This document shows positions 5,291 through 38,689 of a stretch of 64,000 nt of DNA, one piece after another. A model generated the notes under the pieces. That model saw nothing but the letters and a program-made list of their open reading frames with translations. It had not been told where the DNA came from and made no database searches. The first letter of the stretch is position 1; each line of letters opens with the position of its first letter. This stretch comes from Methanobacteriota archaeon. Lineage in GTDB: Archaea > Undinarchaeota > Undinarchaeia > Undinarchaeales > Undinarchaeaceae. A program made the translations under genes and the position numbers. The stretch is taken from assembly GCA_002687935.1 (NCBI GenBank), contig NZBN01000002.1, forward strand, positions 7,394 to 71,393. Reading direction: 5' to 3'.

Positions 5291-7174
5291 CTATTTATTC
5301 TGTCCCTTTCCTGTATTAAGCCTTTCTATCTCTTCCTTGAGAATTTTCATAATAATCTTTCCATCAGCCTTTCCGCGGACTTCCTTCATTACCAGTCCCA
5401 TCAGTGGTTGAAGAGCACGTTCTTTTTGTTCTCTTATGAATTTCTCTTTCTTTTCCACTATCTTCCGTATCAGTTTTTCCAAATCCTTCTGGCTTATTGC
5501 CTTTACTCCTGTCTTTTTAATAAGAGAGTCAAGACTTTTGTCTGGTGTCCTGCTCCATGCTTCAAGAATTTTAGGGACTGCTTCTTTGCTGAATTTTCCT
5601 GCTGAAAGTGCATTGAAGAGTTCAGTATAGTGTCCTTCCTGGAGTATGAATTCTTCATCCAGTGATTTCACAGCATTTGTAAATGTGCTTGCTATAACGA
5701 CAGGGTCTGCCTCGGTTTCCTTTGTCATTTGTTCGAACATTCTGAGGAAGTCACTTCTCTGTATTTTTTCTGCAAGATTTTGGGAAAGACAGTATTTTTT
5801 CTTGAGCTCTTTAACTCGTTCCTCTGGCATTGTTGGAAGATTTTTCTGCATTTCCTTAAGTAGACTTTTCTGTATTGCGCGTGGGGATAAATCTGTTTCA
5901 GGATACATTCTTGCTGAGCCAGCTATCGGTCGCATATATGCGCTGTTTCCGTCAGGGAGGGCCTTCCTTGTTTCTCCTGGCAATTCATTGGCGGCAAGAA
6001 GTGCTCTGTCTGATGCGACACTTATACATTTTTTACAGTTTTCCTCCTCATCGGCTATAAGTATGAATGCGTCCGTTTCTCCTACTTCCAGTTTCTGTTT
6101 TATTTTACTTACTTCTTCCTCGTTTATTCCGTAAGCTGGTAGCTCATCAGAGTGGAAGAGACCCCTTGCTCCATAGGCTTTTGCGTATTCTGAAAGCTCA
6201 GTTCCAAAACGCCGTCCTTCCTGGATTTCTCTGCCCAATATTCCGGCAAAGCCTGAAAGTCTTGCTCCAAATACTGCTCCTCCTGAATCGAGGGCTGTTC
6301 TAAGTATTTTTGATTTAGTTTTCGCAAGTGTTTTTGAAAGATTTGTCGGCTTTCCGGCAGAAATCCTTATCTTTGAAAGTTCATCTTCTATTTTAAGAAG
6401 ACTGGTCTGTCTCTGTATTTCACTTTCAGCGTATTTTGGAATTAAGTTCAGTTCCTGAACTCCTTTTATTTCTATCCGGGTACCGTTTTTTATTGATATA
6501 TTGAGATCCTGTCTGATTGTTCCTATTCCTCGCTTAACTTTCTTTGTTGCTCTTAACATTCCTCCAATCGTTTTTGCCACTTCTCTGGCCTCTTCCGGAC
6601 TTCGTATGTCAGGTTCTGTTGCTATTTCTATTAAAGGGACTCCGAGTCTGTCAAGATTATAGCTCACCTTTCCGTCTTCTTTTCCAACTATTCTGGCTGA
6701 ATCTTCCTCAAGACATATTGTCTGTATCCTGATTCCACCTTCTGCGGTTTCCAGAAGTCCTCCTGTGGATACAAGTGAGGTTCTTTGAAATCCTGTTGTG
6801 TTTGAGCCGTCAATTACAGTCTTTCTCATTACATGGAGCTCATCCACTATTCTACTATCCAGAAGAAGGGACATCTGTAGCGCCGTTGATAGAGACTCTC
6901 TATCAATTCTTTTTGGAGGCTCTTCGTCAAGCTCTACAAGGCAGTTTGAATCTTTGTAGAAATTATAACTGTATCTATTTCCGCGAACTTCAGCTTGCAT
7001 TGCCGCTGCGTCAACCATTCCAAATTCTCCTGCCACTGCTCTAAGCGTTCTTTCTATGATATAGTCAGGGTCTTCATCCTGAGTTTCGCTTGGACATCTG
7101 CAAAAGAGCTTACCAGTATCTAATTGCTGGTGTATTTCAAGTCCTATTTTCAGCCCTAGCTTCTTGTAGTCCAT
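5291..7174 (-). CDS. gatE: Glutamyl-tRNA(Gln) amidotransferase subunit E (archaeal GatE)
   Basis: 627 aa. The N-terminus MDYKKLGLKIGLEIHQQL matches the GatB/E family. There is a C-terminal YqeY-like domain. Confidence 0.85.
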   Translation of the reverse strand: MDYKKLGLKIGLEIHQQLDTGKLFCRCPSETQDEDPDYIIERTLRAVAGEFGMVDAAAMQAEVRGNRYSYNFYKDSNCLVELDEEPPKRIDRESLSTALQMSLLLDSRIVDELHVMRKTVIDGSNTTGFQRTSLVSTGGLLETAEGGIRIQTICLEEDSARIVGKEDGKVSYNLDRLGVPLIEIATEPDIRSPEEAREVAKTIGGMLRATKKVKRGIGTIRQDLNISIKNGTRIEIKGVQELNLIPKYAESEIQRQTSLLKIEDELSKIRISAGKPTNLSKTLAKTKSKILRTALDSGGAVFGARLSGFAGILGREIQEGRRFGTELSEYAKAYGARGLFHSDELPAYGINEEEVSKIKQKLEVGETDAFILIADEEENCKKCISVASDRALLAANELPGETRKALPDGNSAYMRPIAGSARMYPETDLSPRAIQKSLLKEMQKNLPTMPEERVKELKKKYCLSQNLAEKIQRSDFLRMFEQMTKETEADPVVIASTFTNAVKSLDEEFILQEGHYTELFNALSAGKFSKEAVPKILEAWSRTPDKSLDSLIKKTGVKAISQKDLEKLIRKIVEKKEKFIREQKERALQPLMGLVMKEVRGKADGKIIMKILKEEIERLNTGKGQNK

Positions 7175-7204: not shown

Positions 7205-7918
7205 TTATCCTATTATTGCAAGCACCAATGCTATTGAAATAGGCTGGTGTATCAGATATATAAAAAGGGAGTTTCTTCCAAGAAATGAAAGGAATCTTAT
7301 TGTTTTCCCTGTTGATAAATCCTGAATTTTGTACTGCCTTTCTCCTCTTTTATAGAGTGAATTTCCTATAAAGATTCCAAAAAGGACATAGCCAAACCAG
7401 GGGAAGAGGGGAAAGTAGTCAAAGGTATAAAAGTTTGCGGGAGCAATTCCAAGCCATAAGAGAGAGTAGGTCTGAACTCTTTGTTCCATTATTACAATCC
7501 CTGCAAACAAGGCAAGTAATCCTACAACAAAGGCTGATTTTCTTCTTGCCAGGAATGGATAAGCAAGTATTATTGAAAGGCCGATGAAGTGCAGTATTCC
7601 GAAATAAATAGTTCCTGCTGGAAGAAATATCCAGGTCACAGCAGTGATTAGAAGTCCCCAGCTGAATATTTTGAGGCCTCTTTTTGTGTAGTGCGTGAGG
7701 CTCCTCCTATTCCGGTTGTAGCTTAGTGTAAGGGAAATTCCTACAAGTACTATGAATGTTAGCGCTATTGATCGTGCGAAAATCCACCATCCACCCTGCC
7801 CTATTTTCCACCCCAGGCTTCCAAAGTAGTTAAGGTCGAACAAAAAATGAAAGATTATCATTGCACTTATTGCAATTCCCCTCAGAGCGTCAATCTCCCA
7901 TAGGCGCGATGGTTTCAT
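7205..7918 (-). CDS. Polytopic membrane protein, DUF1624/acyltransferase-like
   Basis: Multiple hydrophobic helices. The N-terminal EIDALRGIAI motif is typical of the heparan-alpha-glucosaminide N-acetyltransferase-like family. Confidence 0.5.
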   Translation of the reverse strand: MKPSRLWEIDALRGIAISAMIIFHFLFDLNYFGSLGWKIGQGGWWIFARSIALTFIVLVGISLTLSYNRNRRSLTHYTKRGLKIFSWGLLITAVTWIFLPAGTIYFGILHFIGLSIILAYPFLARRKSAFVVGLLALFAGIVIMEQRVQTYSLLWLGIAPANFYTFDYFPLFPWFGYVLFGIFIGNSLYKRGERQYKIQDLSTGKTIRFLSFLGRNSLFIYLIHQPISIALVLAIIG

Positions 7919-10507: not shown

Positions 10508-11028
10508 TTTCTTGCTTTCAGAGCAAGTGCTGCTGAAAACATCAGAAATCCACTTCCAATCATCATTTTTCCAAGCTTCTTATTTAATATCCCTCCAATT
10601 TCTGACGGACTCCCTGTTGTCTGATTTATTACAATCTCTTCACTTTCATTTTCAAAGCTCTCCCCCACTTCAGTTTCGAAATCAAAATTCTCAGTTTCTG
10701 AGAGAGAAACAAGTATCAAATTTTCTCCATCAACTAATTCAATCAAATTTACTTCTATGGAAAAAACAAGTGTGGAGTGGCTTCCTTCATCGCTGGCGAG
10801 AATTGCTATGGAATGCAGTCCTCTTCCTGAGGCATTTACAGTAAGCCTCGTTCCATTTAAAGAATATTTCAGAGGGCTTGCAACTACAAATGAAACGTCC
10901 CTGGAAAATCGTCCTGTTGAGTTCAAATCTATTTCAATTGCATCCCCTTGGGCTATCGAAAAATCTGCGGCTAGTGCTGGACTGCTTATTAGTGCAAGAG
11001 CTGCTAAAGTGAAAATCGGCCATCTCAT
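10483..11028 (-). CDS. Secreted/membrane-anchored hypothetical protein (signal peptide plus C-terminal TM)
   Basis: The N-terminus LAALALISSPALA looks like a signal peptide. The C-terminus has a hydrophobic anchor. Confidence 0.45.
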   Translation of the reverse strand: MRWPIFTLAALALISSPALAADFSIAQGDAIEIDLNSTGRFSRDVSFVVASPLKYSLNGTRLTVNASGRGLHSIAILASDEGSHSTLVFSIEVNLIELVDGENLILVSLSETENFDFETEVGESFENESEEIVINQTTGSPSEIGGILNKKLGKMMIGSGFLMFSAALALKARNQSFLFMQ

Positions 11029-13686: not shown

Positions 13687-13757
13687 TATTTATGCCTCTG
13701 TCAAAGTTTCTCTAAAGTACTTTACTTAAAAAAGATTTCGAAATGAAAATGGCTGAG

Positions 13758-31896: not shown

Positions 31897-32573
31897 GCAC
31901 TGAAGAACAACAAGAGCATTATTACAAGGAAAAGACAAAGATTCCTCTTCATCTCGGAGAAGTTTCTGCTTTAATCAAAGGTACTGAACTAAAGTTATTT
32001 TCTTCTCCCCCTGTATTTTCTTGGAGGCAAATTGACAAAGGCAGTCTTATTATGGCCGAGAATATGCTTATTCCTGAAGGGCAGGGAAAGCTTCTTGATA
32101 TGGGCTGTGGTTATGGGGTTCTCGGTATTTTTGCAGCTCTTCAGAATCCTCTACTCGAGGTGCAGATGGTTGATTCAAGCGAGCGTGCTGTGTATCTGAC
32201 AAAGAAAAACATTCGGAAATATGGTCTTGGTTCGCGTGTCACAGTTGTTCAGGGAAATTTGTTTGAAAAGCTTGAGGATAAAGATTTTGATACTATTGTC
32301 TCAAATCCGCCTTATTCTGCTGGGAAGGATGTGGTTGAACGCTTGATTGCTGATTCTCCTGCTTATTTGGCTGAAGTGGGTACGCTTCAAATTGTAGGCC
32401 GGCATTCCAAAGGCGGTAAAATGTATAGAGACTACATTAAAGAGGCATTTACTTATGAGTTTGAGTTTGGAAAACAGAGTGGATTTCGTATATATCTTGG
32501 GAGTAAAAAAGATATACCTGAACTACGAGAGGATAAAGAGTCTATACTGGAGTCTTACTCCACGGACGAATAA
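31893..32573 (+). CDS. Class I SAM-dependent methyltransferase, RsmC/MTS-domain-like
   Basis: Motif I LDMGCGYGVLG and motif IV VSNPPY. Confidence 0.7.
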   Translation: MSTEEQQEHYYKEKTKIPLHLGEVSALIKGTELKLFSSPPVFSWRQIDKGSLIMAENMLIPEGQGKLLDMGCGYGVLGIFAALQNPLLEVQMVDSSERAVYLTKKNIRKYGLGSRVTVVQGNLFEKLEDKDFDTIVSNPPYSAGKDVVERLIADSPAYLAEVGTLQIVGRHSKGGKMYRDYIKEAFTYEFEFGKQSGFRIYLGSKKDIPELREDKESILESYSTDE

Positions 32574-32596
32574 AGTTCCGATAATGGACTAATACT

Positions 32597-32680
32597 GCCG
32601 AGGTCGCATAATCTGGTATTGCGCTACCCTGGAAAGGTAGTTTCCTTCGGGATGTGTGAGTTCAAATCTCACCCTCGGCG
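32597..32680 (+). tRNA. tRNA-Ser (anticodon GGA)
   Basis: Cloverleaf folded by eye: acceptor GCCGAGG/CCUCGGC. Anticodon loop CUGGAAA gives GGA. Long variable arm. T-loop GUUCAAAUC. Confidence 0.8.
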
Positions 32681-32685
32681 CTTCG

Positions 32686-32696
32686 TTACTTTTTTT
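32686..32696 (+). terminator. Oligo-T tract immediately after the tRNA (archaeal-type terminator)
   Basis: ACTTTTTTTAT follows directly after the tRNA 3' end. Confidence 0.4.
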
Positions 32697-32720
32697 ATAT
32701 GGGGACGTACTAGTTATTTT

Positions 32721-32861
32721 ATGGCAAAAACAGATCCTGTAAAATTAACTTCTTCAATTTTAGAAGCAGTTGATATTGCTTCAGAAAATAATAAAGCTCT
32801 TAATCCTGCTTATAGTGCAATTCCTTTCAATAAACTGTATTTATATACTGTAAGTCTATAG
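32721..32861 (+). CDS. Small hypothetical ORF (46 aa) in an AT-rich islet
   Basis: Starts MAKTDPVKLTSSILEAVDIASENNKAL. The ORF-track entry 32619..32861 runs upstream through the tRNA, which is implausible. Confidence 0.25.
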   Translation: MAKTDPVKLTSSILEAVDIASENNKALNPAYSAIPFNKLYLYTVSL

Positions 32862-32911
32862 CAAATAGGTGGCATTGGCTAAATAGGTCTAAAATATTCC
32901 ACAATTTCGTA

Positions 32912-33436
32912 ATGAGGCACCAGTGGGTACCCATTTACTTTATTCCACATTCGCGCAGTTTCTCGTCCAAGCGTGGCTTTGCCGAATCACGACTTAGAAG
33001 GCGTCTTGAAAAACAGGGCTGGTCTGTCTGGAAAGGTCTCCTGGTTGGTGCTGTACGAATGCAAGATGATTATTCAACTGCAACGGAAAAGTATGAATTA
33101 CTTTCTAAATTTTTAGAAAAACATAGTGCGGAGCTTCTGGAAAAACTCCAATATTATTGTTCTGTTCATTTTGGCTTTCCTGATTTTATCTGTAACAAAG
33201 GTAGGGAATGGAAATTTGTTGAATGTAAGTTGGGCTATGAGCCTCTCAGTGAAAAACAGAAAAAATGTATAATGGAGCTTCAGCTTCTAGGTCTTAATGT
33301 TGAGGTTCATAAACTAGTCAGTAGCCATACAGGAACTCAGTCTGCAATGGTAAATTTAAAAGGAACTGGTAAAATAATAACTCGAAAACAACTAACTCTT
33401 AATGACAGGCTCTTTAGCAGGTGCCAAAACATATAA
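32912..33436 (+). CDS. VRR-NUC domain nuclease (PD-(D/E)xK superfamily); probable real start at the ATG at 33059
   Basis: GFPDFICNKGREWKFVECKLGYEPLSEKQKKCIMELQLLGLNVEV matches the VRR-NUC consensus (G.PD... fVEvK ... LS..Q..w...l...G..vev). Confidence 0.65.
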   Translation: MRHQWVPIYFIPHSRSFSSKRGFAESRLRRRLEKQGWSVWKGLLVGAVRMQDDYSTATEKYELLSKFLEKHSAELLEKLQYYCSVHFGFPDFICNKGREWKFVECKLGYEPLSEKQKKCIMELQLLGLNVEVHKLVSSHTGTQSAMVNLKGTGKIITRKQLTLNDRLFSRCQNI

Positions 33437-33463
33437 AACATCCATCTCTAAATTTAGCTACTC

Positions 33464-33625
33464 ATGTTAAAAGAACTAAGGAAAAAATTACAAAATCTTA
33501 GCAAGATAAAGAATTGTCCAGCATGCAGTTCTAAGGATATTACTTATGATTCTAAGGGTAAAGCACATCTCTGCAATGATTGTGGTGTAGATATTCAGGC
33601 TACTATTTCTTCTAAAACTGAGTGA
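33464..33625 (+). CDS. Small zinc-ribbon protein (53 aa; below ORF-track cutoff)
   Basis: Manual translation MLKELRKKLQNLSKIKNCPACSSKDITYDSKGKAHLCNDCGVDIQATISSKTE, with the pattern CPAC-x15-CNDC. Confidence 0.4.
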   Translation: MLKELRKKLQNLSKIKNCPACSSKDITYDSKGKAHLCNDCGVDIQATISSKTE

Positions 33626-33680
33626 TTTTAGGTCCTTTCTATATAGATAAAGTATATAAAGTCCTATGTACTAGGAGATG

Positions 33681-33902
33681 TGCTAGGAGGTGAAGGCAGC
33701 GCAAACCTTCGGGGGTGCGCTTTGAAGTGTTTCGAAAGAAACATGGATGTTGCTGTAAAAAGCAGGTCTTCGCTTTATAGCTCCCATAAAATGCTGGGAG
33801 GTGAAGGCAGTACAATTCTTCGGACTTGTACTCTGAAATATCTTGAAAGGGATATGGATGCTGCTGTAAAAAGCAAGTCTTCACAAAACAGCACTAAATT
33901 TT
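33681..33902 (+). ncRNA. Candidate structured ncRNA made of two tandem 111-nt units, each starting with a GGAGGTGA motif and carrying two hairpins
   Basis: Unit 1 spans 33681-33791 and unit 2 spans 33792-33902. Hairpin A is AGCGCA-AACCUUCGGGGG-UGCGCU versus AGUACAA-UUCUUCGGAC-UUGUACU (UUCG loop). Hairpin B is GUGUUUC-GAAA-GAAACAU versus AUAUCUU-GAAA-GGGAUAU. Compensatory changes preserve the pairing in both hairpins. TATA-like boxes lie at 33640-33656 and a T-tract at 33899-33907. Confidence 0.5.
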
Positions 33903-34637
33903 TGTTTGCTTAGCAACCTTTTCTGATTCTATTCTAGCCTTTTCACTATCTCCTAGATAGTAATGCTTTACAGGATTCAAATTATCATCTAGCTCATAAA
34001 CAAGAGGAATTCCGGTTGGTATATTCAATTTCGTTATTTCCTCGTCTGATATCTTATCTAAATATTTTACAAGTGCCCTAAGGCTGTTTCCATGGGCGCA
34101 TATTATCAATTTCTTACCTTCCTTTAATGATGGAGCAATTTTATCATTCCAATAAGGCAGTACTCTGTTAACAACATCTTCCAAACTTTCTGTGGCTGGC
34201 AGTTCACCCTTTTCAAGTTTTGCGTAAAGTTCGTCATTTTTTGGATGCCTCTCGTCATCACCACTTAAAGTCGGTGGTCTAATGTCGTAACTTCTTCTCC
34301 ACAGGAAGACTTTTTTCTCCCCCTCTTTCTCTGCAGTTTCTTTTTTGTTAAGTCCTTGGAGGGCCCCATAATGTCTTTCATTGAGTCGCCAGTTTTTGTA
34401 TATAGGAATTTCTGAGAGTCTCATTTCTTTTAAAACTATATCAAGAGTTTCTGTTGAACGTTTTAGAACTGAAGTATATGCTTCGTCAAAAGTATAGTTT
34501 CCTTCTGTCAAAAGTTTGGCAGACTCCTCTGCTTCCATTTTTCCTTTCTCCGTCAGTCCAACATCTGTCCAGCCGGTAAACTTGTTTTCAAGGTTCCATA
34601 CACTTTCTCCGTGCCTGAGAAGTACCAGCTTTATCAT
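33894..34637 (-). CDS. gpmA: 2,3-bisphosphoglycerate-dependent phosphoglycerate mutase
   Basis: [23 protein letters not shown] and the RHYG motif mark the histidine-phosphatase dPGM family. Confidence 0.85.
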
Positions 34638-34638
34638 A

Positions 34639-35325
34639 TTATATTTGGAAAAGGAGCCCTAGGTTGTAAGTCAAAGCAGTCGCGAATATGCCAATTGCTA
34701 CCATTTCAAAACCTCCAACATACCATTTCTTCACTGTGAATTTGCTCTTCGTTGCCCCTCCTATGAAGAGTGCAATTGCTGTGAAAGTGATTGCGTATGG
34801 AAGTGCCTGGGCTGAAAGTGCAAATATCATGAAAGGTATTACAGGTATAATTGCTCCCAAAACAAAGGCAAGGCCTGTGTATCCTGCTGCCTTCCCGGGA
34901 TTTTTATCACTAACCTTTCCAAAACCGAGCTCTTCTTCCATCATTACTCTGAGCCATATTTCTTCATCAGATGTTATTACCTCAACAACTCTTTCTAAAT
35001 CCTTCCCTTTGAATCCCTTCTTCGCATAAATGTCACGTATTTCCTGTCTCTCAACTTCAGGCATATCTAGTATTTCTTGTTTTTCTCGCTCAAGCTCCTT
35101 GTCATAAAGTTCAGAATTGGATTTAGTTGACAAGTAGTTGCTGGACATCATAGATATGGCTCCTGCTAGAACTTCAGCTATCCCTGCTATCAGAACAATT
35201 TTACTCTGAGCGACTGCCCCTGCTACACCTGCAATAAGAGCTAGGTTTGAGACAAGTCCGTCGTTGAGCCCCAGTATAGCGTCTCCTATGTATTTCTTTT
35301 CGTCAATTAGATGGGCCTTTTCCAT
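34639..35325 (-). CDS. VIT1/CCC1-family membrane protein (putative iron/manganese transporter)
   Basis: An N-terminal cytosolic segment is followed by the [10 protein letters not shown] motif and TM helices. Confidence 0.6.
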
Positions 35326-35378
35326 GCGAGAGCTTATTTAGGAATGGCATAAATATGTTTTGAACTATATAATCTAAA

Positions 35379-36077
35379 ATGATGCCAAAAATATATAGTG
35401 CAAGTCTTAAGGAAGTGGAGAAGCTTTCTGATGACGTCAGTTATTTCACTTTTAATTTGGACTCATCTATGTCGTTTGAGCCCGGGCAGTTTGTAATGCT
35501 TGCGATGGAGATAGATGGTGAGAAGGTAAAACGTGCATATTCTATAGTAAGCAGTCCGGAATCTACAAAGGAGCTTGGCTTCTGTATCAAAGTTTTGAAA
35601 GACGGAAAACTTTCTCCTGCCCTAAACTCCATTAAAAAAGGTGATTTGGTGGAGATCCAGGGACCTTATGGTAAATTTTCTCTATCTGAACCTAAACTTG
35701 ATCAGCTTTTTATAGCTGCAGGAACTGGTGTGGCCCCCTTACTTCCTATGCTGAAATCTTATCTTGAAAATGAGTCTGGAAATGTAAGTCTGCTTTTTGG
35801 TTTCAGGCACGAAAACGACTTCCTTTTCAGAGAGGAGCTTGAGGCTCTTCTTTCAAAATATTCTAATTTTACACTGATCCCTGTGATGAGCCGTCCATCT
35901 GAGTCCTGGACTGGTCTGAAAGGACACGTTACAGTTTATGTTGCAGATAATGTGCATGATTCCAGCCGTACAATTGCGTACATCTGCGGTCGAAATGAAA
36001 TGGTGCTCGATGTCAGAAAAGCCCTGATTGAGGCGGGTCTAAGTCCTGAGAGAATAAAAATTGATAATTGGGGATAA
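35379..36077 (+). CDS. FAD/NAD(P)-binding oxidoreductase of the ferredoxin-NADP reductase-like family (PyrK/electron-transfer subunit-like)
   Basis: RAYSIV (RxYS FAD motif) and GTGVAPL NAD(P)-binding motif. Confidence 0.65.
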   Translation: MMPKIYSASLKEVEKLSDDVSYFTFNLDSSMSFEPGQFVMLAMEIDGEKVKRAYSIVSSPESTKELGFCIKVLKDGKLSPALNSIKKGDLVEIQGPYGKFSLSEPKLDQLFIAAGTGVAPLLPMLKSYLENESGNVSLLFGFRHENDFLFREELEALLSKYSNFTLIPVMSRPSESWTGLKGHVTVYVADNVHDSSRTIAYICGRNEMVLDVRKALIEAGLSPERIKIDNWG

Positions 36078-37523
36078 TTATCCCTTTAAAACACCAAGTG
36101 GAACTAAACGCGCAACAATTTTTCCTATTCCAACTTCGTGCGATACTTTGACGACTTCGTCAATATCTTTATAGGCTCCAGGAGCTTCCTCTGAAACGCC
36201 TCTCCAGCTTGCAGACCTGACTAATATCCCTTTACTTTTCAAATCTTTCTGAACCTTTTCTCCTTTATACAATTTATTTGCCTGATGTCTGCTCATCAGA
36301 CGTCCTGCTCCGTGTGCTGTGCTTCCGAATGTTTCCTTCATTCCGTCATCGGTTCCTACAAGAACATAGGAGGCAGTTCCCATGCTACCTGGTATCAGAA
36401 TTGGTTGTCCGACATCTCTGTATATTTCAGGTATCTCTACATGTCCTGGACCAAAGGCTCTTGTTGCTCCCTTTCTGTGTACATAGACTTTTTTCATTTT
36501 GCCATCTATTTCATGCTCTTCAAGTTTTGCCATATTATGACATACATCGTACATAAGTTTCAAATCAGAATTCGGAAATACTTTTTTGAATGAATTTCTT
36601 GCTTCATATGTCATAACTTGTCGGTTGCACCATCCAAAATTTGCAGCTGCACTCATGGCTTTGTAATAATCATTAGCTATATCAGTTCCAAGAGGTGCAT
36701 ATATCAATTCTTTATCCTCAAGATTTTTGAATATCTTTGCTTGTTCTGTTTCCATTCTTCTCAAATAATCTGTACAGACTTGGTGACCAAGACCTCTTGA
36801 GCCTGAGTGTATCATTACAACAACTTGTCCTGCCTCTCTTATTCCAAACTTTTCTGCCGTTTTTTTATCAAAAATTTCTTCAACAGCCTGAATTTCTATG
36901 AAATGGTTTCCTGCACCTAATGAGCCAACTTGCTTACATCCTCGTTTTTTCGCACGGTCTGAAACTTTAGAAGAATCAGCCTGTGGCATCTTTCCGTTTT
37001 CTTCACAACGTTCCTTGTCTTCTTCTGTTGCATAGCCCTTCTTAATTGCCCAGTCTATTCCAGTGTTCAAGACTTCCTCAAGTTCACTAGTTTCCAATTT
37101 TATTTTGGATTCAGAACCTACTCCGGTGTGTATGTTTTCATAAAGAACATTAAGTATCTCTCCCAATCTTTCGTTTACTTCATCTACAGTGAGATTGCTA
37201 GTTAATACCCGTACTCCACAGTTTATGTCATACCCAATTCCACCTGGGCTGATAATTCCATTTTCTGCGTCAAATGCGGCCACACCTCCTATTGGAAAAC
37301 CATAACCTTGGTGGGCATCGGGCATCATTATTGCGTGTTTGCAAATTCCAGGGAGTTTTGCCATATTAATTCCCTGTTCAAGTGCTCTGTCCTTTTCTAT
37401 ATCTGCCATCAACTTTTCTGAAGCAAATACTTTAAGGGGAACTTTCATGTCCCCTTTTTTTTCAAATACATAGATATTTTCTGATTCTTTTTTCATATGT
37501 CTACAACTACCTGCACCATACAC
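36078..37523 (-). CDS. rtcB: RNA-splicing ligase RtcB
   Basis: 481 aa with conserved His/Cys metal ligands and similarity to archaeal RtcB. Confidence 0.85.
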   Translation of the reverse strand: MYGAGSCRHMKKESENIYVFEKKGDMKVPLKVFASEKLMADIEKDRALEQGINMAKLPGICKHAIMMPDAHQGYGFPIGGVAAFDAENGIISPGGIGYDINCGVRVLTSNLTVDEVNERLGEILNVLYENIHTGVGSESKIKLETSELEEVLNTGIDWAIKKGYATEEDKERCEENGKMPQADSSKVSDRAKKRGCKQVGSLGAGNHFIEIQAVEEIFDKKTAEKFGIREAGQVVVMIHSGSRGLGHQVCTDYLRRMETEQAKIFKNLEDKELIYAPLGTDIANDYYKAMSAAANFGWCNRQVMTYEARNSFKKVFPNSDLKLMYDVCHNMAKLEEHEIDGKMKKVYVHRKGATRAFGPGHVEIPEIYRDVGQPILIPGSMGTASYVLVGTDDGMKETFGSTAHGAGRLMSRHQANKLYKGEKVQKDLKSKGILVRSASWRGVSEEAPGAYKDIDEVVKVSHEVGIGKIVARLVPLGVLKG

Positions 37524-37930
37524 TTTTCTGGCATGTCTTCCACTAACATATCGCTATATGTCATCGATTTTATATTTCCCGAGACTTGGTACTTTTTATT
37601 CCCTCTTTTGTAAATGTCTCCGCGTGCAAGAGCCTCCAGTGTATATCCTGCGTCTGCCTTTTCTATTTTAAGCTCCTTTATTTCATTAAGAAGGAAATTA
37701 GTGGTGTCTAATTGAAAAAGTAGTTCATCTAAATACTCATAAAGAACTTGGGACAGATCTTCTCCTTCTACTTCCACTCTTTTTTCAACATTTGGCTCAA
37801 TTTTTTCTGTGTCAGTTATAATTCCAAACATAGCAAGAGCTGCGTTTGAAAAAGCTTCTTCCATAGTCTTTCCAAATGCTCTGAATTTCGCGTCTGCTGT
37901 ATGTTCAAGATATTCGTATTTTTTCATCAT
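37493..37930 (-). CDS. Archease (RtcB activator)
   Basis: 145 aa with N-terminus MMKKYEYLEHTADAKF, immediately upstream of rtcB. Confidence 0.8.
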   Translation of the reverse strand: MMKKYEYLEHTADAKFRAFGKTMEEAFSNAALAMFGIITDTEKIEPNVEKRVEVEGEDLSQVLYEYLDELLFQLDTTNFLLNEIKELKIEKADAGYTLEALARGDIYKRGNKKYQVSGNIKSMTYSDMLVEDMPEKCMVQVVVDI

Positions 37931-37948
37931 AAGACTTAGATTAAATAT

Positions 37949-38689
37949 CTAAATAAGTCCTCCGTAGCCTTTTTTCTCAATCTCATCTGCAAGTTCAGGA
38001 CCGCCGGTTTTTACAAGTTTTCCATCCTTCATTATAATTATTCTGTCTGGTTTTACATATTCAAGAATTCTCTTGTAATGTGTTATCAAAAGTATAGCTC
38101 TTTCTGAATTTCTTATCTTGTTTATCCCTTCGGCTACTGCCTTTAGTGCGTCAATGTCAAGTCCTGAATCAGTTTCATCAAGTATTGCCAGATCTGGTTC
38201 AAGTACGGCCATCTGGAGAATTTCTGTGCGTTTTTTCTCCCCTCCTGAGAATCCCTCATTAATATATCGGGAAAGAAATTCTTCATCTATTCCTAGTTCT
38301 TCAGCACTTTTCTTGAAACTCTCATAAGTTTTCAACAAATCAATTTTCTCATCTTTTCCCTGTCTTGCCTGAACTGCCGCTCTTAGAAAGTTTGCAACTG
38401 TGACTCCTGCAACTGCTGATGGATATTGGAAGGACATGAATATTCCTCTCCTTGCTCGTTTATCAGGTTCAAGCTCTTTCATACTCTCTCCTTTGAAAAG
38501 TATATCTCCTGATTCGATACGGTATTTTGGATTTCCCATTATAGTATTAGCCAGTGTACTCTTCCCCGAGCCATTTGGTCCCATGAGCGCAAGCACTTCC
38601 CCTTTCTTAATCTCTAAATTAAAGGAGTTAATTATTTCCTTTCCTTCTACACTTACACTTAGATTTTTAACATCAAGCAGATTTGTCAT
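37949..38689 (-). CDS. sufC: Fe-S cluster assembly ATPase SufC
   Basis: ABC ATPase with Walker A GPNGSGKST and the LSGGEKKR signature. Confidence 0.9.
   Translation of the reverse strand: MTNLLDVKNLSVSVEGKEIINSFNLEIKKGEVLALMGPNGSGKSTLANTIMGNPKYRIESGDILFKGESMKELEPDKRARRGIFMSFQYPSAVAGVTVANFLRAAVQARQGKDEKIDLLKTYESFKKSAEELGIDEEFLSRYINEGFSGGEKKRTEILQMAVLEPDLAILDETDSGLDIDALKAVAEGINKIRNSERAILLITHYKRILEYVKPDRIIIMKDGKLVKTGGPELADEIEKKGYGGLI

Follow-up and report, generated by a model that had tools for sequence, protein, structure and literature searches.

A 64-kb stretch of archaeal DNA (64,000 nucleotides, nt; positions 7,394 to 71,393 of contig NZBN01000002.1, assembly GCA_002687935.1; hereafter the window) carries on its plus strand an array of two head-to-tail units, u1 (33680 to 33790) and u2 (33791 to 33901), that very probably constitutes a functional structured noncoding RNA (ncRNA). 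As judged from sequence, the array would represent a new, genus-restricted RNA family with a four-way-junction architecture and a variable tandem layout. An initial annotation of this DNA had read the locus as a candidate novel structured ncRNA, and this reading is supported by a conserved structure on the plus strand, open reading frames (ORFs) that appear incidental, the lack of a match to any known family, and a promoter-like block in front of the array. The compensatory pairs, nucleotide-level purifying selection, and promoter-like signals that generically mark structured ncRNAs all appear to be present at this locus.

Exact-protein matches place the window among TARA Oceans and other marine contigs, and the nearest genome in GTDB is a Candidatus Undinarchaeales metagenome-assembled genome (MAG). 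Orthologues of the array, gathered through ORF translation, flanking genes, and a DNA pattern, come from a single genus of Undinarchaeales (DPANN archaea) and fall into three species-level lineages, here called W (the window, L001, L002, L119, and L126), B (L008 and L010), and C (L009, L090 to L092, L121, and L130). The location of the array is constant in all of them, with a gene for a 53-amino-acid (aa) zinc-ribbon protein on one side and, on the other, the stop codon of gpmA, which is convergent.

Fold and covariation of the tandem units

The tandem duplication described in the initial annotation lies where it was reported, with a start-to-start spacing of 111 nt and 78% identity between u1 and u2 across a 91-nt core (81% as mean alignment-column identity). 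Tandem Repeats Finder at its default scoring missed the two units, which a direct-repeat search and alignment show unambiguously; a third copy was looked for in the 64-kb window, and none was found. On the plus strand the minimum free energies are −43.8 kcal/mol for u1 (z = −5.05 versus shuffled sequence) and −35.1 kcal/mol for u2 (z = −4.54), while the minus strand folds less well (z = −2.26 and −3.53, respectively).

The predicted fold of a unit consists of a closing helix, P0, of 4 to 5 base pairs (bp), an 8-bp helix, P1 (GUGAAGGC with GUCUUCRC), and three hairpins with the terminal loops UUCG (hairpin A), GAAA (hairpin B), and GUAAAA (hairpin C). Alignment columns 45 and 72 pair in three standard forms (U.G, U-A, and C-G), and with this pair closed arm B contains a symmetric, purine-rich 4x4 internal loop (UGAA/GGAU, in which U.U, G.A, A.G, and A.G pairs are possible) and the four helices join at a four-way junction without an unpaired linker. 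The three arms measure 10 bp, 7 bp plus the 4x4 loop, and 5 bp, with loops of 4 to 6 nt, and RNAalifold applied to the alignment independently recovers the same helices. Hairpins A and B, with their UUCG and GAAA loops, had been correctly described at the outset, but the two-hairpin description was incomplete, having overlooked P0, P1, hairpin C, the 45-72 pair, and the junction.

In u1, P0 is formed by 33682 to 33685 with 33778 to 33781 and P1 by 33690 to 33697 with 33766 to 33773, the latter lengthened by a u1-specific extension (33687 to 33689 with 33774 to 33776). Hairpin A (33698 to 33721), arm B (33722 to 33749, with the closing pair 33722/33749 followed by the 4x4 loop, the 7-bp stem, and the GAAA loop), and hairpin C (33750 to 33765) follow one another directly, and an AU-rich linker (33782 to 33791) leads to u2. 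There, P0 pairs 33792 to 33796 with 33889 to 33893 and P1 pairs 33801 to 33808 with 33877 to 33884, enclosing hairpin A (33809 to 33832), arm B (33833 to 33860), and hairpin C (33861 to 33876). P0 is the sole helix that distinguishes u1 (GCUA/UAGC) from u2 (GCUG/CAGC), a difference that would favor in-register folding of each module. We also note that CUCCCA at the end of u1 and UGGGAG at the beginning of u2 could form a 6-bp hairpin across the linker (33781 to 33800), which is part of the centroid fold predicted for the full-length transcript and would sequester the GGGAG of u2, a motif resembling a Shine-Dalgarno (SD) sequence. The sequence of this possible hairpin is invariant in all lineages, and hence carries no covariation information, and it is absent at u2-u2 junctions.

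Pairing was scored on a seven-sequence alignment comprising 245 pair cells, 94.7% of which hold standard pairs, versus 34 to 51% when the 3′ partners are slid by 1 to 3 columns. Seven pairs, spread over P0, A, B, and C, are altered on both sides yet still paired. All of the stem changes listed in the initial annotation are found, namely C-G to U-A, G-C to A-U, and a further C-G to U-A in hairpin A, and G-C to A-U, U-A to C-G, and changes to G.U wobbles in hairpin B. Its generalization that every stem substitution is compensated holds for these changes but fails at columns 27/38 and 28/37, where an internal mismatch reads A.G and A.G in u1 and A-U and U.C in u2. Between lineages W and B, all seven substitutions in u1 fall in stems and keep pairing by exchanging Watson-Crick for wobble pairs or the reverse. 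Variable sites within the orthologue groups number 18 in stems and 4 in the internal loop between P0 and P1, with none in the terminal loops and none in the 4x4 loop. When substitutions were simulated in equal number and at the same transition/transversion ratio, pairing as good as that observed had P values of 1.5e-4, 4e-5, and 1e-5 in three u1/u2 comparisons. The RNA differs by 6.5 to 8.3% between lineages, and synonymous divergence (pS) in gpmA and the zinc-ribbon gene is 0.55 to 0.61, suggesting that the RNA evolves roughly eight-fold slower than flanking synonymous sites.

The pairing is also strand specific, with 94.7% of cells paired on the plus strand versus 79.2% on the minus strand, where pairing is lower because 39 of the 245 cells are G.U and become A.C. 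Both this test and the z scores bear out the proposal that the structure belongs to the plus strand. These results speak directly to the idea that the units are repeated purely as DNA elements (iterons, a recombination site, or a mobile-element remnant, for instance), without any RNA function. Such an idea draws on the setting of the array, in a variable region downstream of a tRNA-Ser gene and beside a VRR-NUC nuclease gene and a gpmA that appears horizontally acquired, and on its varying copy number. Strand-specific pairing with 39 G.U cells argues against it, however, as does the conserved promoter-like block in front, and compensatory changes together with invariant tetraloops are not expected of DNA repeats bound by protein. 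No similarity to phages or plasmids was found by blastn, and viral contigs were likewise without a match. We therefore regard a purely DNA-level role as very improbable.

Transcription signals and coding potential

A putative archaeal promoter lies at 33636 to 33660 on the plus strand (TTTCTATATAGA.AA.GTATATAAA), in a block that is near-identical in all three lineages and contains TATA-like boxes at 33639 to 33647 and 33652 to 33660. The ∼20 nt that follow (33661 to 33679) lack conservation, which returns exactly where u1 begins. A conserved block followed by a variable spacer is what an archaeal TATA promoter would be expected to show, and we interpret it as the putative promoter of the RNA itself; since the usual archaeal spacing from TATA box to start is ∼25 nt, transcription would begin near 33680 to 33682. 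The TATA-like boxes had been pointed out initially, and the arrangement of conserved block, variable spacer, and conserved RNA agrees with that proposal. A scan for sigma-70 promoters and intrinsic terminators returned nothing relevant, these models not being applicable to archaea.

At the other end of the array, a T5-G-T3 tract on the plus strand (33899 to 33907) is a possible archaeal terminator located inside the last codons of gpmA, which encodes a 2,3-bisphosphoglycerate-dependent phosphoglycerate mutase on the minus strand (33894 to 34637, stop codon 33894 to 33896). The tract is present as the initial annotation described, but it is not conserved, reading TTTT in lineage C and being replaced in lineage B by sequence with no T-run. 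Because the next downstream gene is convergent, and no plus-strand gene follows the array in any of the three lineages, the array is not a cis-leader.

The convergent layout raises the alternative that the array is a cis-antisense or 3′-overlap regulator, whose transcription into gpmA modulates the 3′-end formation or stability of the gpmA mRNA. In each of the three lineages, the final P0 strand lies directly against the stop codon of gpmA, the putative terminator lies within gpmA, and read-through is plausible in lineage B, which lacks the T-run. The overlap with the folded part of the RNA is at most a few nucleotides, however, and antisense regulation would explain neither the conserved junction, the invariant loops, and the compensatory stems nor the amplification of u2 upstream, and we consider it an unlikely account of the locus.

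A 77-aa frame is open on the plus strand across the array in all three lineages. It begins with GUG or AUG near the start site proposed above, and 111 nt correspond to 37 codons, which would suit a leaderless mRNA for a small protein built of 37-aa repeats (MLGGEGS...). The ratio of nonsynonymous to synonymous divergence (pN/pS) in this frame is ∼1.0 for W and B, 0.33 for W and C, and 0.54 for B and C, in comparisons of 13 to 17 substitutions each; the corresponding values are 0.18 for gpmA and 0.25 to 0.30 for the zinc-ribbon gene. Small as these counts are, the 77-aa frame appears to lack a consistent coding signature, and the same holds for the codon-level conservation of the 37-aa repeat that translation would predict. 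Of the seven u1 substitutions between W and B, six alter the amino acid, as read from the translations, and all seven keep pairing. Because the u2-u2 period is 110 nt rather than 111, a third unit falls out of frame and terminates in unrelated residues. An equally long ORF crosses the array on the minus strand, no Pfam domain matched the translated array ORF, and a search of this translation against 5.8 billion proteins returned only three near-identical clusters, all from the same genus. Translation of the array is thus highly improbable, and the initial view of its ORFs as incidental holds. We note that public assemblies contain "hypothetical protein" calls of 72 to 145 aa over the array on either strand (P0001 to P0003), for example, an 88-aa call at 10802 to 11068 of L001 and a 145-aa call on the opposite strand at 6532 to 6969 of L090. 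Given the coding analysis, such calls are best regarded as artifacts of the open frames of the repeat.

Each unit had also been described as starting with a perfect SD sequence, GGAGGUGA. The motif is present in the window, but in u1 of lineage C it has changed to GGGAGUGA. Both changed bases there still pair with U98 and U97 of the u1-specific P1 extension, which suggests that selection in u1 acts on the helix and not on complementarity to 16S rRNA. These observations bear on the possibility that the array is an anti-SD decoy in which the 8-nt GGAGGUGA of every module sequesters the 16S rRNA 3′ end or 30S subunits. In its favor, the window contains GGAGGTGA just three times, two of them inside the units (at 33686 and 33797), and the GGGAG of u2, which lies in the internal loop, varies in none of the lineages. 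Yet the GUGA of the motif is buried inside P1, the substituted motif of lineage C keeps its pairing, and no start codon follows the motif at the usual SD spacing. A decoy of this kind seems less plausible still than regulation of gpmA by overlap.

Distribution, copy number, and genomic context

Across the orthologues, the array opens with a single u1, after which u2, the amplified module, is present in one to at least four copies; arrays of 2, 3, and at least 4 to 5 units are distributed over the three lineages. This variation was overlooked in the initial annotation. A single u2 follows u1 in the window, L002, L010, L091, and L126, two u2 are present in L001, L008, and L119, and L121 contains at least four, with the array running off the contig end. 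Extra u2 copies are identical to the resident u2 and repeat with the 110-nt period (L001, L008, L119, and L121). Many independent metagenome contigs break inside the array (L003 to L007, L092, L121, and L130); the repeat breaks short-read assemblies, and the locus would consequently often be absent or truncated in MAGs.

Within the reach of our searches, the RNA appears confined to one marine Undinarchaeales genus. Homologues of the neighboring VRR-NUC protein drop from ∼90% identity to at most 52%, with the more distant loci (L093, L098, and L099) lacking the arrangement, and those of Cbf5 drop from 88 to 91% to at most 61%. A covariance model of the RNA, run with filters off on the syntenic regions of distant Undinarchaeota (L164 to L166), gave no match, and gpmA synteny in GTDB genomes yielded only one useful locus (L010). 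Degenerate DNA patterns applied to JGI metagenomes and IMG/VR recovered only arrays of the same genus plus random coding matches, and a structural descriptor (TGAA, stem, loop, GGAT) found nothing new over 1.5 Mb of relatives' loci. A literature search found no description of ncRNAs in Undinarchaeota.

The gene directly upstream of the RNA (33464 to 33625, plus strand) encodes the 53-aa zinc-ribbon protein (CxxC...CxxC), which is under purifying selection (pN/pS of 0.25 to 0.30 at a pS of 0.55 to 0.61) and is as genus-restricted as the RNA; among 1.84 billion representatives, only one further cluster was seen at the 50%-identity level. Its best PDB match is the N-terminal ribbon of TFIIB (1pft_A, E = 8e-4), and the Pfam family Zn_Ribbon_TF scores under its cutoff. 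A single-sequence AlphaFold model was mediocre (pLDDT of 70.5), and a Foldseek search with this model was uninformative. The protein may be a stand-alone factor resembling the ribbon of TFB, and a functional link between it and the RNA is only a hypothesis.

On the downstream side, the relatives of gpmA include one archaeal protein (83% identity, from the same genus), and the other close ones, at ∼64% identity, are bacterial (Cloacimonadota, Caldisericales, Omnitrophota, and others), which suggests horizontal acquisition of gpmA by this Undinarchaeales genus. The stretch downstream of tRNA-Ser(GGA) is variable (32597 to 33436 in the window, 8175 to 9138 in L008, and 4928 to 5931 in L090), with lineages B and C carrying an extra 132-aa ORF and a flavin reductase gene ahead of the VRR-NUC nuclease gene. 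In distant Undinarchaeota, the genes for Cbf5 and a methyltransferase are followed by none of VRR-NUC, the zinc-ribbon gene, the RNA, and gpmA. The region downstream of tRNA-Ser may be an old integration hotspot; a search for att-like direct repeats within 32400 to 38000 found none. An RNA-ligase pair, RtcB and archease, is encoded on the opposite strand 2.2 kb from the array (36078 to 37523 and upstream). Structured Y-like RNAs are included in the RtcB operons of some bacteria; neither a Ro/TROVE gene nor a match to a Y-RNA model is present in the window.

Relation to known RNAs and possible function

A search of the whole window with the 4227 covariance models of Rfam 15 at gathering thresholds returned two tRNAs only, and searches of the array region (1.5 kb and 230 nt) at E values up to 10 gave chance matches of 11 to 20 bits versus cutoffs of 40 to 70. 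This agrees with the initial statement that the array resembles no characterized family. A tRNA or tRNA-like element was ruled out, as ARAGORN and Rfam place tRNA-Ser genes only at 13757 and 32597 and the arm sizes differ. A bulge-helix-bulge splicing motif and the cores of the hammerhead and hairpin ribozymes were rejected on architecture, and a template/variable repeat pair of a diversity-generating retroelement was rejected since the differences between units are not adenine-specific and no reverse transcriptase gene is nearby. P1 (GGGAGUGAAGG...CUUCAC) may resemble the L1 mRNA operator of Methanococcus and the 3′ region of 16S rRNA, a possible likeness that was dropped as evidence.

Several comparisons concern the RNAs of archaeal ribonucleoproteins (RNPs). 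The 4x4 loop recalls a kink-turn in that U.U, G.A, and A.G beside a Watson-Crick pair follow the order of the noncanonical stem of box C/D RNAs (UGA opposite GAU). A kink-turn, and with it an L7Ae site, was nevertheless ruled out despite the possible pairs G47.A70 and A48.G69, since the loop is symmetric and its flanking pairs, 45-72 and 50-67, each found in three standard forms, leave no room for a 3-nt bulge. A box C/D small RNA (sRNA) was ruled out because each unit ends in Watson-Crick helices, P0 and P1, and not in C and D boxes; u2 of the window lineage alone has CUGA, the other sequences reading UUGA. Archaeal H/ACA sRNAs, like the array, comprise one to three tandem structured units, u2 has an ACA directly 3′ of P1, and a Cbf5 gene lies 1.8 kb upstream of the array. 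In an H/ACA unit, however, one hairpin holds an open pseudouridylation pocket along with a kink-turn or K-loop, and this class was ruled out, as the interior of each unit consists of three covarying hairpins and u1 has GCU where u2 has ACA.

The four-way junction invites a comparison with the U1 snRNA core, the natural hairpin ribozyme, and the SAM-I aptamer, which likewise combine four helices without an unpaired linker with a purine-rich internal loop near the junction in one arm. They differ from the array in showing no sequence or covariance-model similarity to it, and the catalytic loops of the hairpin ribozyme and the SAM-binding loops are absent from its units. A ligand-binding or catalytic module would take the form of a new aptamer or of a ribozyme that processes itself, splitting the array into monomers. 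Covarying stems around invariant nucleotides in the loops and near the junction, as seen in riboswitch aptamers and small ribozymes, are consistent with this alternative, and tandem units separated by short AU-rich linkers would suit self-processing. Nevertheless, no riboswitch or ribozyme of Rfam matched at E values up to 10 (the hammerhead, hairpin, twister, twister-sister, pistol, and hatchet models included), no gene follows on the same strand, and the sole internal loop of arm A differs from u1 to u2, leaving such a module, like an effect on gpmA, improbable. Riboswitches as such, including tandem aptamers, were ruled out on the convergent orientation of gpmA and the lack of a match to any aptamer model.

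In gene layout, the array most resembles the ToxI-type RNAs of type III toxin-antitoxin systems, which are head-to-tail structured repeats of variable number behind one promoter, presumably cut to monomers. ToxI-type repeats measure 34 to 45 nt and are followed by an endoribonuclease toxin gene on the same strand. The units here are longer, at 110 to 111 nt, and are followed by a phosphoglycerate mutase gene that is convergent, and an antitoxin array was ruled out, no plus-strand gene following it in any of the three lineages. In how the array may work, rather than in membership, the closest analogy would be with multimodule protein-binding sRNAs such as CsrB/RsmZ, in which a protein-binding element is repeated in variable number on one transcript to give a folded decoy. 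Those RNAs present short GGA-loop hairpins that bind CsrA, whereas the modules here are four-way junctions of ∼100 nt; to our knowledge, CsrA is absent from archaea. The CsrC match in the Rfam search was at chance level (11.5 bits versus a cutoff of 61), and the array is a member of neither group.

We tentatively propose, as the best of the explanations considered, that the modules of the array bind protein, a mechanism that is possible though somewhat short of probable. Each module is predicted to fold on its own, with stems drifting by pair-preserving changes around fixed loops, and would act as a folded particle rather than as an antisense RNA, offering the same protein-binding surface each time. 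We favor protein binding over an antisense mode because, apart from the 4- to 6-nt loops, there is hardly any conserved sequence that would be single-stranded. An array would supply several identical sites from one promoter and might serve as a multivalent scaffold or sponge, or its modules might be released as monomers by cutting in the 8- to 10-nt AU-rich linkers.

Several points weigh against the interpretation of the array as a functional, protein-binding RNA. The structure was derived from the same sequences on which pairing was scored, which inflates the controls. The RNA is known from only three closely related lineages, so that the covariation rests largely on the old u1/u2 duplication and on one-sided transitions. 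Termination at 33899 to 33907 is uncertain because lineage B lacks the T-run. Copy numbers above two could partly be assembler loops, and exact counts may be inflated, although at least some u2 expansion is real because the novel u2-u2 junction sequence must be present in reads. The 4x4 loop is not a canonical kink-turn, and hence no specific protein family is implicated, and the zinc-ribbon neighbor resembles a TFIIB-type ribbon, a protein-protein module and not a known RNA binder.

The restriction to a single genus limits the importance of the array. Recognizing it as an RNA corrects spurious "hypothetical protein" calls in public assemblies, and it provides a defined and easily synthesized RNA target whose fold matches none of the 4227 curated families. 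We know of almost nothing reported on ncRNAs in DPANN archaea. The genomes of these organisms are small and streamlined, and a strongly conserved noncoding locus of 220 to 450 nt is therefore unlikely to be idle, while the variation of copy number within natural populations suggests that dosage matters. A bolder and rather unlikely reading, still somewhat ahead of an aptamer or ribozyme, is that the array defines an archaeal RNP or catalytic RNA of a new class, specific to a DPANN symbiont. It would form a particle of ∼100 nt whose dose is tuned by expansion and contraction of u2 and which possibly works with the zinc-ribbon protein, for instance by serving as a decoy for the machinery of transcription or translation, either in the symbiont or in its host.

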